Shown here one piece after another: positions 43,560 to 50,926 of a stretch of 52,535 bases of DNA. The position numbers and the translations under genes were made by a program. The DNA lies in assembly GCA_021432655.1 (NCBI GenBank), contig MU271342.1, forward strand, positions 33,629 to 86,163, written 5' to 3'. This stretch comes from Atractiella rhizophila (lineage: Eukaryota). The notes beneath the pieces are model-generated. The model saw only the letters and a program-made list of their open reading frames with translations, did not search any database and was not told where the DNA came from. The stretch's first letter is position 1. The number at the start of each line of letters is the position of its first letter.

Positions 43560-44280
43560 ATGAAAGGTATGTCTGTCTATCTTCTTCGCTTAGTGCCACG
43601 CTGACTCGATCACGAAGCGATCCTCCAGCGTGTCCTGTCATCCTCCGTCCTAATTCCCCCTTCTCCAACTCCCTACTCTTCAGCAGGCCCTGGCCTCGTC
43701 GTACTAGCCGGAATCTCTCCAACAGACACAGCAGAAGATGCGGAGAAGCTCGCCTCCAAGATTCTCGCGCTGCGCCTATGGGATTCAGCAGAAGGACAAC
43801 GGTGGAAGAAGAGCGTGACGGATATCCAGGGGGACGTGATGCTCGTCAGTCAATTTACATTATTTGCAAAAACACACAGAGGATCCAAGGTACGCTGTTC
43901 TCAGTTTATGGATCCTGAAGCTATAAGAGGTTGAAGAATTCGCGTGATGGATGAAATGGAAGGAGTAGCCCGACTTCCACGGTGCCCTTGGCCCCGATAA
44001 GGCGAAGCCGCTCTTTGATCTGCTAGTCAGCAAGGTGCGAGAGAAATACGTGTCCGTGCGTCCATTTGCCGCTTTCGATCGCTCGCGGTTCATCGTTTGA
44101 TTTTGGTGGGACGTGGGACAGGAGCGTGTGAAAGAAGGCGTGTTCGGAGCGATGATGCAGGTCGCTTTGGTCAATGACGGCCCTGTGACTGTGGAGGTAG
44201 ACACTGAGATTGGGAGGAAGGGGAATCGGAAGGAGGGAGAAGTCGATGGTGACAAGGTGATAGAGAAAGATGATCAATGA
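43560..44280 (+). CDS. DTD1: D-aminoacyl-tRNA deacylase (D-Tyr-tRNA deacylase), intact copy, ~174 aa, three introns
   Basis: Spliced: MKAILQRV...GLVVLAGI...LRLWD...[23 protein letters not shown]...[21 protein letters not shown] at 44278-44280. Confidence 0.93.
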
Positions 44281-47176
44281 AACCTTTTCTGCGCAAAAGC
44301 CAGACTCGATCGCGGTTTCTTACTTCAACTCTCCATCTTCCAGAAGTAGGCAGGGAAGGCTCAGTCCTCTCCATCAATTATTCGTTTCAGGTCCGCGTAC
44401 AGCTATTTCTCGCCGTCTTTATCAAAATCAAATGAGAAACTTGAGTTATGGCTTAACGCCAGAAGAAGAAAACAAACACCAAGTACATGGTATGCATCGC
44501 AAAAAGAGGTAGGAGGTATCAGTGTTGGCGTCAGTGGACCAGTAGACTTGGAATCGGGTTCTCCAAGAATGAGAAAGGGCACGACTCGCGCTCACAAGAG
44601 AGGACACTGCACTTTGTGGCACTCAACATTTTAAAAGGCGGAGTTGCAATCATTTATACAGCTATTAGTACAGATGGAGTAATGTAATGTATATCAAAAG
44701 AGAGAGCCAGAAAGTGTGAGTGAAATCTTTTGTCAGTCGAATAGAAGCGTTCTGAATGTCGTTGCTTCTTGTGAGTCATGGTTGGGCGAAATGAGAGACA
44801 GATCCGCGTTGTTCGCTCTGTTCATGAATTGAATCCGTTTACGGATAATTCCTTTATCCAGACTTCATTGCAATATCAGCTTGCGAGGGCGACCACCTCA
44901 TCCATCGACACTACTTTTAGAGTAGATAAGGATGGAGAGCATCTTCAACCTCTACGGGAAGCGAGCCTATGCCAATATAGAGGACGGCGAGGTTCGGGAA
45001 AGCAGTGAGGGAGAAAGGGATCAGAAACGGAGTTGGGGGACGCAACATGTACAGGGACAGGGAGGAGGGAGTGGCAGTGGCAGTGGGAATGGGCATAGGA
45101 GAAGGAGTAGGCGGGGAAATGGCAGCGGTGGCAATGGGAGAGGTGTGTGATTCCTTCTGGAAGGCAGAGTTGTTACCCAAGTGGTCGTTGTGTTTGACCT
45201 TTGTTTGACCTTTTCCCTCAGATTGAACAGTACTTTCTCACCCTCTGCATGGGTGAGAGTGTTTCATTCTGTTTTCTAACTCTTTTGCATCTAAGAATTT
45301 CTCTCTAAGTTCCTCAGAATCCGTGCAGGCTTGTTTATTTTACATTCCTGATATTATTCTTAGCATATGCCGTGGCTACGTGACTCTGCCAAGGATCAAT
45401 GAACCTGAAAGTGCCTCGACTTGCTTCCACAATGAGGCTGTGTGCCCGTCGCGATCTGAGCTCATTTGTCTTTTCATTTCTGATGAGCTTCTATGCACAC
45501 AGGGGAGGTGGATGACCATCTTGACATAGAATATTGACAGTCCTCGCCGCTGTAGAATGCTTCAATATTGTACTCACGCTCTGCTCTAGGGAATCAAGCT
45601 TCTCCATTTGAAGGCACAAGCGCGAGATTGCTGGGTCCTCATGTTAGCGATACGGAGTCCAAAAGAGGTCTCCAAGAGCAACTAAACACGTACAGCAGAA
45701 TGTATGCCGACGAAAAGAGGCTTCGCGAGCAATCGGAAGCCGAGTGCCAGAGGTTGCGAGGGGAGATGAGCGAGCTCGCGACTCGAGTGGACAATATGAA
45801 AGCTCAGCTGAAAGGTATGGTTTGGCACCTTTGTGCGTAGTTCAGTAAGCTCAATCCAGTGTGATTGGGGCGATAGAACAAGATCCGACACAGTATCAAC
45901 ATACCATCGATCGGATGGGACAGGAGCTGCATCAGACGAGGAGCGAATTAGATACGATTCGAACCAACTATTCGAACCTCCAAAACTCCTACTTCGAGAT
46001 CGATCGGATGCACATCGATTCGCGGACCCAAGTCCACCGTTTGCTCGTAGCGCAAGAGAATGTCGACGCTCTCAAGGACCAATGGCAGCGCAAGGAGGAT
46101 CTGTTGCGACGGGAGATCCGAGAGGTCCGTGGCGAATCCGCAGACTTGAGAAGGGACCTTGCAAGAGAACGTTCGGTCCCCGTGCGAGCGTTGGATGACG
46201 TGAAAAGGTTGAGAGAGGATTTGGAGAGGGAGAAGAGATTGAGACGTCTGGCAGATGAGAAGATTGCCGAGCTGACTTTGAATGCGACGAAGAGGACGAC
46301 GAATATTGGAAGTCAAACCGCAATTTCGTTGCAGGTATCCGCTAAGGAGCGGGAACTTGGTGTGTTGCCGTTTATCTTTGCCTCAAACAGCAGATGGTAA
46401 TGGGAGGCATAGAGACGAAGTTTACGAAGGAGAAGGAAGATCTAATCTCTCAACATCAGCAGGAAATCCGCGAATTCGAGCGGACCAAGGTCGATTTGGA
46501 GAGAGCAGCTGCAGATGCTCGCAAGGCCGTTGATGACCATGCAGCGGACGCGACAATGTGGGAAAACAAATATACAAAGCTCCTTGACAAGAGTCGGAAG
46601 CTCAAGGAGAAACATGACGCGACCGTTCAACTGGCGAAGGAGTATAAGGAGCTAGTCGATAGCACAGTCCCTCCTACGAAAGGTGGCAAGGGGAAGAAGA
46701 AGGCAGATGGTACGGGATCGAAGAGTCTTCCTTCGGCTAAGAGGATCCAGAAGGAATCTGCGCCGCGACCCGCCGTCGTCGATGCTCCAGCCTCTGCTGT
46801 CGCTGTCACGCCAAACACGACCACAGGTTTGCCCGTGCAGCAACCAGGGATGTATCCTATACCACAGCCCTCGACTTCGATGCAAGCCTCTTCCTCCACT
46901 GCGCAGCCGGCGCTCCAAGCCAATTCTCAACCCCATCGTCCGCCTGCTCCTGTACCTCCTCATCAAACAGCAGCTGTCCCACCTGCCCCTGGATCCACTA
47001 GCCAATCCCCTGCTGTTCCACCGGCACGTCCCCTTAAGACGGCACCTCCGTCCCAAACAACAAGAGCGGCGAATCCTGCAGCATCTTCTGCTCCACCATC
47101 CATGCACGAGAACCCGCTCAGCATCTTCAAAAGAAAGTCCAATCCTATGCACTCTCCGGTATCTTCACAAGCTGCC
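43818..47176 (+). repeat. Tandem segmental duplication, copy 1 (~3.36 kb)
   Basis: Sequence starting ACGGATATCCAGGGGGAC at 43818 recurs at 47177; the copies are collinear with scattered substitutions and small indels. Confidence 0.95.
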
Positions 47177-47640
47177 ACGGATATCCAGGGGGACGTGATG
47201 CTCGTCAGTCAATTTACATTATTTGCAAAAACACACAGAGGATCCAAGGTACGCTGTTCTCGATTTTATGGATCTTGAAGCTATGAGAGGTTGAAGAATT
47301 CGCGTGATGGATGAAATGGAAGGAGTAGCCCGACTTCCATGGTGCCCTTGGCCCCGATAAGGCGAAGCCGCTCTTCGATCTGCTAGTCAGCAAGGTGCGA
47401 GAGAAATACGTGTCGGTGCGTCCATTTGCCGCTTTCGATCGCTTACGGTTCATCATTTGATTTTGTTGCGGCGCGGGACAGGAGCGCGTGAAAGAAGGCG
47501 TGTTCGGAGCGATGATGCAGGTCGCTTTGGTCAATGACGGCCCTGTGACTGTAGAGGTAGATACGGAGATCGGGAGGAAGGGGAATCGGAAGGAGGGAGA
47601 AGTCGATGGTGAAAAGGTGATAGAGAAAGATGATCAATGA
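44932..47640 (+). CDS. Chimeric gene: coiled-coil/Pro-rich protein fused in frame to the C-terminal ~105 aa of DTD1
   Basis: ORF 46394-47278 reads ...[24 protein letters not shown]... across the junction; downstream DTD introns keep GT/AG ends and the TGA at 47638-47640 is retained. The first exon (44932) is inferred. Confidence 0.7.
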
Positions 47641-50511
47641 AACCTTTTCTGCGGAAAAGAGAGACTCGATCGGGGTTCCTTACTTCAACTCTCCATCCTC
47701 CAGAAGTCGACAGCGAAGGCTCAGTCCTCTCCATCAATTCTCCATTCCAACCCATTCGTTTCAGATACTTCTCATCCGTCTTTACCAAATGAGAAACTTG
47801 AGTTATGGCTTAACGCCAGAAGAAGAAACACCAATGCATCGCAAAAAGAGGTAGTGTTGGCGTCAGTGGGCCAGTAGACTTGGAATCGGGTTCTCCAAGA
47901 ATGAGAAAGGGCACGACTCGCGCTCACAAGAGAGGACATTGCACTTTGTCGCACTCAACGTTTTAAAAGGCGGAGTTGCGATCATTTATACAGCTATTAG
48001 TACAGATGGAGTAATGTAATGTATATCGAAAGAGAGAGCCAGAAAGTGTGAGTGAAATCTTTTGTCAGTCGAATAGAAGCGTTCTGAATGTCATTGCTTC
48101 TTGTGAGTCATGGTTGGGCGAAATGAGAGACAGATCCGCGTTGTTCGCTCTGTTCATGAATTGAATCCGTTTACGGATAATTCCTCTATCCAGACTTCCT
48201 TGCAATATCAGCTTGCGAGGGCGACCACCTCATCCATCGACACTACTTTCAGAGTAGATAAGGATGGAGAGCATCTTCAACCTCTACGGGAAGCGAGCTT
48301 ATGCCAATATAGAGGACGGCGAGGTTCGGGAAAGCAGTGAGGGGGAAAGGGATCAGAAACGGAGTTGGGGGACGCAACATGTACAGGGACAAGGAGGAGG
48401 GAGTGGCAGTGGCAGTGGCAGTGGGAATGGGCATAGGAGAAGGAGTAGGCGGGGAAATGGCAGCGGTGGTAATGGGAGAGGTGTGTGATTCCTTCTGGAA
48501 GGCAGAGTTGTTACCCAAGTGGTCGTTGTGTTTGACCTTTTCCCTCTGATTGTACAGTACTTTTCTCACCCTCTTCAGGGGTGAGAATGTTTCATTCTGT
48601 TTTCTAACTCTTTTGCATCTAAGAAATTCTCTCTATGTTCCTCAGAATCCGTGCAGGCTTGTTTTATTTTACATTCCTGATATTATTCTTAGCATATGCC
48701 GTGGCTACGTGACTCTGCAAAGGATCAATGAACCTGAAAGTGCCTTGACTTGCTTCCACAATGAGGCTGTGTGCCCGTCGCGATCTGAGCTCATTTGTCT
48801 TTTCATTTCTGATGAACTCCTACGCACAGTGGCTGAAGCGGAGGTGGATGACCATCTTAGCATAGAACATTGACTCTCCTCATCGCTGTAGAACGCTTCA
48901 ACATGGTACTCACGGTGCGCTCTAGGGAATCAACCTTCTCCATTTGAGGGCCCAAACGCGAGATTGCTGGGTCCTCATGTTAGCGATACGGAGACCAAAA
49001 GAGGTCTCCAAGAGCAACTAAACACATACAGCAGAATGTATGCCGACGAAAAGAGGCTTCGTGAGCAATCGGAAGCCGAGTGCCAGAGGTTGCGAGGGGA
49101 GATGAGCGAGCTCGCAACGCGAGTGGACAATATGAAAGCTCAGCTGAAAGGTATGGTTTGGCACCTTTGTGCGTAGTTCGGTAAGCTCAATCCAGTGTGA
49201 TTGGGGCGATAGAACAAGATCCGACACAGTATCAACATACCATCGATCGGATGGGACAGGAGCTACATCAGACGAGGAGCGAATTAGATACGATCCGAAC
49301 CAACTATTCGAACCTCCAAAACTCCTACTTCGAGATCGATCGGATGCACATCGATTCCCGGACCCAAGTCCACCGTTTGCTCGTAGCGCAAGAGAATGTC
49401 GACGCTCTCAAGGACCAATGGCAGCGCAAGGAGGATCTGTTGCGACGGGAGATCCGAGAGGTCCGTGGCGAATCCGCAGACTTGAGAAGGGACCTAGCAA
49501 GAGAACGTTCGGTCCCCGTGCGAGCGTTGGATGACGTGAAAAGGTTGAGAGAGGATTTGGAGAGGGAGAAGAGATTGAGACGTCTGGCAGATGAGAAGAT
49601 TGCCGAGCTGACGTTGAATGCGACGAAGAGGACGACGAATATTGGAAGTCAAACCGCAATTTCGTTGCAGGTAGCCGCTAAGGAGCGGGAACTTGGTGTG
49701 TTGCCGTTTATCTTTGCCTCAAACAGCAGATGATAATGGGAGGCATAGAGACGAAGTTTACGAAGGAGAAGGAAGATCTAATCTCTCAACATCAGCAGGA
49801 AATCCGCGAATTCGAGCGGACCAAGGTCGATTTGGAGAGAGCAGCTGCAGATGCTCGCAAGGCCGTTGATGACCATGCAGCGGACGCGACAATGTGGGAA
49901 AACAAATATACAAAGCTCCTTGACAAGAGTCGGAAGCTCAAGGAGAAACATGACGCGACCGTTCAACTGGCGAAGGAGTATAAGGAGCTAGTCGATAGCA
50001 CAGTCCCTCCTACGAAAGGTGGCAAGGGGAAGAAGAAGGCAGATGGTACGGGATCGAAGAGTCTTCCTTCGGCTAAGAGGATCCAGAAGGAATCTGCGCC
50101 GCGACCCGCCGTCGTCGATGCTCCAGCCTCTGCTGTCGCTGTCACGCCAAACACGACCACAGGTTTGCCCGTGCAGCAACCAGGGATGTATCCTATACCA
50201 CAGCCCTCGACTTCGATGCAAGCCTCTTCCTCCACTGCGCAGCCGGCGCTCCAAGCCAATTCTCAACCCCATCGTCCGCCTGCTCCTGTACCTCCTCATC
50301 AAACAGCAGCTGTCCCACCTGCCCCTGGATCCACTAGCCAATCCCCTGCTGTTCCACCGGCACGTCCCCTTAAGACGGCACCTCCGTCCCAAACAACAAG
50401 AGCGGTGAACCCTGCAGCACCTTCTGCTCCACCATCCATGCATGAGAACCCGCTCAGCATCTTCAAAAGAAAGTCCAATCCTACCCACTCCCCTGTATCT
50501 TCACAAGCCAC
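47177..50511 (+). repeat. Tandem segmental duplication, copy 2 (~3.33 kb)
   Basis: Collinear with 43818-47176 and ends at TCACAAGCCAC (50501-50511), matching the junction TCACAAGCTGCCAC. Confidence 0.95.
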
Positions 50512-50926
50512 CTTAACCCCTGCTTCTCGAAAGCCCGTCGCCGCCCCGGCTCCTCCCCCAACCGCAGCGAAGGTACTACGGCCGCCTCCTCCCATTTCAA
50601 GAGGACTCTCTTTTGCCCGATCCGCCGCACCGATGGAACCGGACCCGGAGGAAATGAGGAGACGCAAACTCTTCTTGGATGAAGAGGATGAAAAACCAAT
50701 CGTTGAGGAAGAGAGTCCGCGTAGGAGGAAGCCAACGCCAATCGATTTGGACCCGGACGACGGTGAGGCGAGACCTGATGCGGCCATGGTGTCTAGCGCA
50801 GTGAAACTGAAGCTTGAGCAGGATGATGGCATGGAGGTGGATGAGTTACAAAGGGATGATGCGTACGTCGATGACGAAGAGCAAATGTGGAATCAAATGA
50901 AAGCAGAGATTATGGGTTCAAGGTGA
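48264..50926 (+). CDS. Hypothetical coiled-coil protein with Pro-rich and acidic C-terminus (intact parent of the chimera)
   Basis: Coiled-coil exons (~48926-49150, ~49212-49670) and terminal exon 49730-50926. The first exon from ATG 48264 is supported by an in-frame 6-nt GS-repeat indel between the two copies. Confidence 0.75.

Follow-up and report, generated by a model that had tools for sequence, protein, structure and literature searches.

An in-frame fusion of a coiled-coil gene to a truncated D-aminoacyl-tRNA deacylase at a tandem repeat in Atractiella rhizophila: more likely a product of assembly than of gene birth

An open reading frame that joins the 5′ part of an orphan coiled-coil gene (gene B) to the 3′ part of DTD1, a D-aminoacyl-tRNA deacylase gene, lies between two tandem copies of the DTD1-B region in a 52,535-nt stretch of an Atractiella rhizophila contig (the window), and this fused frame was more likely created during assembly than by the birth of a gene. 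The favored reading, to which a probability of about 0.55 is assigned, is a haplotype-stitching artefact of the type known as tandem assembly error or false duplication. The window would then hold two alleles of a single-copy DTD1-B locus placed head to tail, copy 1 and the left flank representing one haplotype and copy 2 and the right flank another, and the join at 47176|47177 would have arisen in assembling a heterozygous isolate with several haplotypes; the fungus itself would have DTD1 and gene B only, and no 666-aa chimeric gene. This reading is favored by the pattern of selection on the two copies, their distances to a single-copy allele from a public sequencing run (X1), the grouping of a public protein (P0004), the lack of the junction elsewhere, the apparently uncollapsed haplotypes, and the existence of a known artefact type.

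The repeat is a direct tandem repeat with a 3.36-kb unit that spans 43818-47176 and recurs at 47177-50512 (96.9% identity; all features are on the + strand), and no other long repeat was found within the 52.5-kb window. Eight repeat families with a spacing of 3328-3360 nt, together with a local alignment of 43818-47172 to 47177-50508 (3208 matches, 103 mismatches and 16 gaps; 96.9% identity), bear out the claim of the first-pass annotation that a unit of ~3.35 kb, from mid-DTD1 into the last exon of the next gene, is tandemly duplicated. Copy 1 (W1, 43818..47176, 3359 nt) starts at DTD1 codon 70, crosses the intergenic region and stops at gene B codon 561, its true end being placed at 47176 because contigs of related isolates match the window up to that position; copy 2 (W2, 47177..50512, 3336 nt) begins with the DTD 3′ part that the chimera uses and continues across the intergenic region into parent B, as far as codon 563. 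Divergence between the copies is 3-6% from 43890 to ~45800, falls to zero over an identical tract of 672 nt at 46398..47069 (0/672) that is flanked by diverged sequence, and rises again to 8/103 nt at 47070-47172. The first 85 nt of copy 2 are the same as those of copy 1.

Both parent genes read through intact beside the chimera, as had been noted earlier. DTD1 (43560..44280; exons 43560-43566, 43618-43889, 43969-44055 and 44122-44280) encodes 174 aa, and its exon 2 matched the Pfam family Tyr_Deacylase, PF02580 (E 6.4e-24, 85.4 bits, profile 3-89); the whole domain (profile 1-144) is present, covered by exon 2 and by later exons identical to those of the chimera. A public full-length allele, P0005, aligned over residues 1-150 with human DTD1 (2okv; E 2.5e-31), the PDB relatives being 2okv, 2dbo, 3knf, 1jke and 1j7g, and an AlphaFold2 model of P0005 made without an alignment was unusable (pLDDT 36.3). 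No public protein carries the same residue as D166 of this DTD1. Parent gene B (48264..50926; exons 48264-48480, 48926-49150, 49213-49695 and 49749-50926) encodes 700 aa and is identical to public protein P0006 (700/700 aa). Its product, an orphan protein, combines a coiled coil with a region rich in Pro, Ala and Ser: no Pfam family was assigned, sub-threshold matches to DUF3629 and DUF4200 being set aside, a search of 1.84 billion representatives recovered its own cluster alone, and an Atlas search returned just generic coiled-coil clusters (best 0.91, 150 shared features), none above TM 0.27 by query.

The chimeric frame (44932..47640) has six exons (44932-45142, 45590-45814, 45877-46359, 46413-47248, 47329-47415 and 47482-47640), with introns placed by means of RNA contigs from a related isolate, at their GT..AG joints and loose ends; GT..AG is retained in all five introns and the frame is open throughout. 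Its 666 aa consist of gene B residues 1-561 followed by DTD residues 70-174, so that the in-frame fusion of a coiled-coil protein to a truncated DTD, as first described, stands. Translation and the Pfam positions (~61-144) likewise agree with the description of a chimera that lacks the first 69 DTD residues and keeps the downstream introns and the SQFTL and NDGPVT motifs, both of which are also present in DTD1. Family evidence on the chimera, gathered exon by exon, consists of matches at profile positions 61-89, 90-116 and 119-144 of 144, and the complete PF02580 domain is lacking.

The junction (47176..47177) reads ...CAAGCTGCC|ACGGATATCC... and is blunt: B codon 561 is followed directly by DTD codon 70, neither gene being cut within a codon, and the two sides share no bases. 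No N occurs here or anywhere else in the window. The in-frame outcome is expected in one of three cases by chance and is not significant. The first-pass annotation had described a 2-nt AC microhomology and an extra GCT codon at this point. Contigs of two related isolates match the window to 47176 and then go on CTAACCCC..., and one public protein has SQAAL at the gene B site; because these sequences carry it, GCT GCC is read as an ordinary gene B allele rather than an inserted codon. The microhomology-plus-inserted-codon reading was rejected accordingly, GCTGCC being the common allele and the join running codon to codon.

The two copies differ in the manner of functional alleles. Synonymous divergence between them is 5-11% with dN/dS of 0.04-0.14, the truncated DTD piece included. 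Within the DTD fragment, eight differences are synonymous and one is nonsynonymous (pS 0.114, pN 0.004, dN/dS 0.04); at most one nonsynonymous change out of nine has P = 4e-5 under neutrality, and the single replacement (D166) lies in intact DTD1, leaving the fragment unaffected. The corresponding values for the B part are pS 0.052 and pN 0.0074. A DTD piece without 40% of the fold would be unlikely to stay so constrained, and the divergence is therefore considered older than the join. At 61 copy-differing sites in the contigs listed for X1, its single-copy allele carries the copy 1 letter at 49 and the copy 2 letter at 12, and over the B part (~1779 nt) copy 1 differs from X1 at eight positions and from copy 2 at 42, i.e., copy 1 is ~5 times nearer to the single-copy allele of another isolate than to copy 2. 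A further argument, that X1 matches both copies as a shared polymorphism, was dropped in favor of distances and groupings, since any third sequence is bound to agree with one copy or the other at such a site. The public single-copy allele P0004 has the copy 2 state at a GS indel and at alignment columns 76, 82, 83, 302 and 533, and the copy 1 state at columns 96, 528, 554 and 563. From the X1 and P0004 groupings, each copy is nearer to some single-copy allele than to its tandem partner; the copies are not each other's closest relatives, as copies that diverged after a duplication would be. Divergence after duplication was rejected on the selection pattern, the X1 distances and the P0004 grouping. 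Judged by the selection pattern, the distances and the groupings, the copies are two old allelic lineages of a single-copy DTD1-B locus and not diverged duplicates. No mutation could be assigned to the chimera, and by the same comparisons the junction is younger than any detectable mutation.

The first-pass annotation had proposed looking for the junction in other isolates, transcripts and peptides. Among four public sequencing runs, apparently of other isolates (X1, X3, X5 and X6), the parental form was recovered and the junction was not: no run (0/4) gave a contig across 47176|47177, and three of the four had the parental arrangement at one or both breakpoints, with contigs from X1 (DNA) and X3 (spliced RNA) running uninterrupted through both parental breakpoints and X5 through the DTD1 breakpoint; the parental continuations show as loose ends in these three runs. 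By arithmetic estimate, parental contigs account for nearly all of the depth in bin 47150-47261. Full-depth differences from both copies occur in X1, X3 and X6 at 46268 and 46319, with two more in X1 at 46151 and 46181; given these fixed differences from the window, the runs appear to come from other isolates, and the absence of the junction there does not refute it. A junction peptide was likewise missing among 5.8 billion proteins searched with chimera exon 4 (longer, similar-length and shorter sets: P0004, P0005, 0 candidates; none junction-crossing), an absence that is weak evidence because the parent genes, too, returned no run fragments. JGI metagenome contigs contained no exact match to a 24-nt junction sequence, nor to the control, a 26-nt sequence across the parental DTD1 breakpoint; the organism is absent from that collection, and the scan is thus uninformative. 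The proposal of a "gene birth caught in the act" accordingly has a frame that is real on paper; it needs the junction to exist in the fungus, for which there is no independent support.

Public A. rhizophila proteins place the gene pair on three contigs (86163, 31649 and 19886 nt) that carry three different DTD proteins, which points to uncollapsed haplotypes. P0005 equals the left flank plus the copy 2 reading, i.e., the window minus copy 1, and is also obtained from a cross-copy splice model on the window that requires a 3439-nt intron spanning all of copy 1. The identity of P0005 and P0006 to readings of the window suggests the same or a very close isolate. The copy 1 DTD1 (D166), the copy 1 B allele and the chimera have no counterpart among the public proteins. 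Three protein types were counted for each segment, so a real duplication would need three haplotypes, and an artefact four or a mosaic copy 2. An exact look-up of ten long ORFs of the window, intended to link its flanks to a public contig, matched none (0/10), which is the outcome anticipated for intron-rich genes. The literature search yielded nothing on the genome, ploidy or heterozygosity of Atractiella; one paper acknowledges "unpublished genome data for Atractiella".

Allelic copies correspond to the haplotype-misassembly case foreseen in the first-pass annotation, and a real exchange between homologues would look alike. Several features weigh against an assembly join. The join contains neither N nor gap, and the sequence to its left and right is clean, with a contig of a related isolate matching 46908-47176 at zero differences, unlike the usual ragged contig ends; overlap-based assemblers do not normally butt non-overlapping ends together. 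In vivo, end joining commonly leaves blunt joins of this kind. The three-haplotype count suits a real duplication, where an artefact needs the additional haplotype or the mosaic, and the missing junction in runs that apparently represent other isolates is uninformative on the source isolate. That the junction is real is given somewhat less than an even chance. It would then mark a chimera of zero age, formed by homology-free exchange between diverged homologues and equipped with a full promoter, five working introns and a terminator, with no mutation yet, and would attach to an orphan coiled-coil protein a DTD half-domain that retains both active-site motifs, next to an intact DTD1.

Two versions of a real junction were weighed. 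An isolate-specific duplication of essentially zero age, by non-homologous joining or by template switching between homologues with different alleles, is possible but on balance doubtful. The chimera would take the whole upstream region of gene B (44281-44931) and the DTD1 3′ end and would probably be transcribed like B; the C-terminal 105 residues of its 666-aa protein would be unable to form the DTD fold alone, and it may have no effect or, by pairing with DTD1, interfere mildly. Consistent with this, the frame and the GT..AG joints of all five introns are intact, the junction is blunt and clean on either side without N, both regulatory flanks are duplicated, three haplotypes suffice for the protein types seen, and retention of SQFTL and NDGPVT, which form the cross-dimer active site according to PMC3845328, makes pairing with full-length DTD1 conceivable. 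Such an event would, however, require two diverged alleles in one nucleus and a homology-free exchange, which is rare; there is no chimera-specific mutation, and neither the runs of apparently other isolates nor the protein searches yielded the junction in any read, contig, transcript or peptide. P0005, apparently from the same or a very close isolate, fits an unduplicated haplotype, but cross-copy splicing gives the same protein. Very improbable is an older tandem duplication that still segregates, in which crossovers with single-copy alleles replaced copy 1 on its left side and copy 2 at its right end, so that the founder haplotype would survive in both copies in the middle tract only. The divergence profile has the predicted shape, passing from diverged to identical (46398-47069) to diverged, but two alleles would be just as likely to share an identical tract. 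The junction is, moreover, missing in X1, X3 and X5 and in two public contigs on which DTD adjoins a full-length B, and the own branch of the junction-linked DTD fragment carries four coding changes, all of them synonymous (P ~0.0025 if neutral), which argues against a long drift as a dead fragment.

The assembly-join reading has known counterparts. Tandem assembly errors arise in heterozygous assemblies often enough that HaploMerger2 includes a module for removing them (PMC5870766, section 2.5), and a discussion of how allelic and tandem duplicates are mistaken for one another in corals is given in PMC10236652. As in such errors, two versions of one locus that have diverged to the level of alleles stand head to tail here, and the public set has the locus on several contigs; unlike them, the join has no gap or N and is bordered by clean sequence on both sides. 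In Drosophila, chimeric genes from partial tandem duplication have been catalogued, and their copies are each other's closest relatives at birth. The fused frame resembles these in being the product of a two-gene partial duplicate, with the 5′ part of the downstream gene and the 3′ part of the upstream gene joined in frame and both parents kept, but each copy here is nearer to a single-copy allele elsewhere and the junction has no read or transcript support. With respect to the DTD family (PF02580), DTD1 of the window is an ordinary full-length member, and the chimera has both motifs; it differs in lacking profile positions 1-60 of 144 (residues 1-69), leaving a fragment that would be unable to fold alone. 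DTD is a homodimer in which, as PMC3845328 describes, the active site combines SQFTL of one subunit with NXGP(V/F)T, including a Gly-cisPro, of the other (further papers on DTD: PMC4880308, PMC5802732).

If the join is an artefact, it would caution against taking gene counts from heterozygous fungal assemblies at face value: false duplication can yield an open, spliceable, in-frame "new gene," and it can distort annotation, P0005 then being a gene model that jumps a 3439-nt intron. Whether the copies are nearer to single-copy alleles than to each other, and whether a "dead" fragment appears to be under purifying selection, make up a reusable test that works without reads. If the junction is real, this early-diverging basidiomycete would carry a chimeric gene of zero age, a rare find, formed by a mechanism of gene origin that is already well known, and the gene would lend itself to studying whether fusions that have just arisen do nothing, poison the parent dimer or bring some benefit.

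The window is eukaryotic, its GT..AG introns are short, and it contains no N; named protein hits assign it to, or very close to, the root fungus Atractiella rhizophila. Its single long repeat is a direct tandem repeat at 43818-50512, in which eight repeat families are spaced 3328-3360 nt apart; no inverted repeats were found within the 52.5 kb. Local alignment of 43818-47172 with 47177-50508 gave 3208 matches, 103 mismatches, and 16 gaps amounting to 65 nt (96.9% identity), bearing out the tandem repeat described in the first-pass annotation. The two copies (copy 1, 43818-47176; copy 2, 47177-50512) are identical over a 672-nt tract (46398-47069) flanked on either side by diverged sequence. 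Immediately after this tract, the end of copy 2 within intact parent B (50406-50515) is unusually divergent, with 8 + 3 differences in ~110 nt relative to copy 1 and related isolates, four of which change amino acids (A/V, S/P, M/T, A/T).

Introns were set by joints and loose ends in RNA contigs (related isolate X3; two RNA-type runs), with splice sites checked, and were placed at 45143-45589, 45815-45876, and 46360-46412 in gene B and, for DTD, taken from its second copy, at 47249-47328 and 47416-47481. The RNA joints fix the donor of the third gene B intron at 46360 (CTTG/GTGTGT) and rule out a donor-like CAG/GTATCC at ~46335. With these introns, both parents can be read intact on either side of the junction, DTD1 at 43560-44280 (174 aa) and parent B at 48264-50926 (700 aa), and a stop-free chimeric open reading frame at 44932-47640 encodes 666 aa, in which residues 1-561 of B run into residues 70-174 of DTD; as first described, it retains SQFTL and NDGPVT and lacks the first 69 DTD residues. 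Exon-by-exon Pfam matches confirmed DTD1 as a Tyr_Deacylase (PF02580): its exon 2 aligned with profile positions 3-89 at 85.4 bits, the chimera pieces matched only positions 61-144 of 144, and human DTD1 (2okv) aligned with a public full-length allele at E 2.5e-31. Gene B is an orphan without family, having no Pfam match above cut-off, only generic coiled-coil neighbors in Atlas, and, when 1.84 billion representatives were searched in full with HMMER, only its own cluster. Its 700-aa product combines a coiled coil with a region rich in Pro, Ala, and Ser, and the gene is nonetheless spliced and present in RNA contigs from the related isolate. A GGGSGSGSG-coding repeat in its exon 1 (45045-45075; 48383-48410) has allele-dependent length, 6 nt longer in copy 2 than in copy 1 and 9 nt shorter in X3.

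The chimeric frame is thus real on paper, with one detail wrong in its original description, which had placed an extra GCT codon and a 2-nt AC microhomology at the junction. A contig from the spliced-RNA run X3 matches window positions 46908-47176 with no differences and then continues as CTAACCCCTGC..., the DNA run X1 likewise matches to 47176 and continues in the same way, and the public protein P0004 contains SQAAL. On this evidence GCT GCC is the common, ordinary gene B allele, and the join at 47176/47177 is therefore blunt: B codon 561 abuts DTD codon 70, with no inserted codons and no shared bases. Copy 2 reads GCC ACC TTA at the same site, a diverged allele of equal length. An in-frame join is expected by chance in one case in three.

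The four best available public sequencing runs were mapped onto 44350-47700, and among these runs, apparently from isolates other than the window's, no contig spanned 47176/47177. In X1 and X3, B runs on into its own C-terminus and DTD1 is preceded by its own 5' part, as it also is in X5; both breakpoints are crossed, unbranched, by long contigs (696 nt in X1, 446 nt in X3), and by arithmetic the parental contigs almost account for the depth of the junction bin. The runs probably derive from other isolates because they differ at full depth from both window copies at 46268 and 46319 (X1 additionally at 46151 and 46181), so they show just that A. rhizophila is not fixed for the junction. Searches for the junction in metagenome contigs and protein collections returned no match and were uninformative. 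X1 and X3 each carry two variants at some places (e.g., 46109-46181), so these isolates are heterozygous. In X1, variant contigs at 46109-46181 and 46878-47003 have depths of ~100 + 125 and 110 + 63, and collapsed contigs ~200-210; depth steps of ~63, 110-137, and 200 could fit three haplotypes.

Three public contigs, whose accessions run consecutively, carry the DTD-B pair: one of 86163 nt (DTD P0005; B P0007, 540 aa), one of 31649 nt (P0008; P0004, 697 aa), and one of 19886 nt (P0009; P0006, 700 aa). Since the three DTD proteins are all mutually different, at least three haplotypes of the locus appear to have been assembled separately for the species; a single assembly would thus hold three or more haplotypes or paralogous segments, where a simple dikaryon would give fewer. 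The copy-2 B of the window equals P0006 at 700/700 aa and contains P0007 as an exact part, and these contigs apparently come from the window's own isolate or from one very close to it. P0005 is identical to the window read without copy 1 (left flank plus copy 2), and equally to DTD1 exon 2 spliced to copy-2 exon 3 over a GT..AG "intron" of 3439 nt (43890-47328), which takes in all of the first gene B copy; if the window is the 86163-nt contig, its annotation skips the duplication by way of this "intron". Plain DTD1 (with D166), the copy-1 B allele, and the chimera have no match among public proteins.

Between copies, the DTD fragment differs by eight synonymous changes and one nonsynonymous change (pS 0.114, pN 0.004; P = 4e-5 under neutrality), and the sole replacement, D166, is located in intact DTD1; the fragment's protein is identical to public full-length alleles, and all four coding changes on its own branch are synonymous. 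The B part gave pS 0.052 and pN 0.0074. Among the contigs listed for X1, covering 61 copy-distinguishing sites, X1 carries the copy-1 letter at 49 and the copy-2 letter at 12. Over ~1779 nt of B, copy 1 differs from X1 at 8 positions and from copy 2 at 42; in the DTD part, where the copies are 19 apart, X1 lies between the two, 9 positions away from copy 1 and 12 away from copy 2. P0004, whose gene adjoins its own full-length DTD gene on the 31.6-kb contig, agrees with copy 2 at five sites as well as at an indel, and with copy 1 at four sites. The copies are therefore two alleles, and their differences do not stem from divergence following a duplication; with no changes assignable to the period since the join, its age is indistinguishable from zero.

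Two alleles side by side at zero age were either joined by an assembler or brought together by a real exchange, free of homology, between homologues. The best-supported reading, to which we assign a probability of about 0.55, is that the fungus itself carries no such chimera and that an assembler stitched two haplotypes of the DTD-B locus head to tail, which would create an apparent tandem repeat. Tandem errors are described as a known product of heterozygous assemblies in section 2.5 of PMC5870766 and in PMC10236652, the A. rhizophila assembly looks uncollapsed, the unduplicated reading exists as the public protein P0005, and a real exchange calls for a rare event. An assembly join is weakened, however, by the absence of any gap at 47176/47177, by clean sequence reaching the join from left and right, and by its need for an additional haplotype, failing which copy 2 would have to be a mosaic. 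Blunt joins, moreover, are seldom made by overlap assemblers. These same features speak for a new duplication by exchange between homologues, which we regard as possible but doubtful given the rarity of such events and the match of the unduplicated reading to a public protein. An older duplication, still segregating, with its outer parts exchanged by crossing over, would fit the profile of diverged, identical (672 nt, 46398-47069), and again diverged sequence, but is very improbable, as the junction is missing from all other haplotypes seen and the DTD fragment shows no drift.

The interpretation as gene birth is unproven. If the junction is real, the chimera would be expected to be expressed like gene B, since the whole B upstream region and the DTD1 3' end are both present in duplicate; the product would lose the C-terminal 139 residues of B and carry 105 DTD residues, with the first ~40% of the domain missing. 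DTD active sites, as described in PMC3845328, cross the dimer interface, with SQFTL from one subunit and NXGP(V/F)T from the other. The chimeric fragment has both motifs but would probably not fold alone; a putative interference with DTD1 is conceivable.
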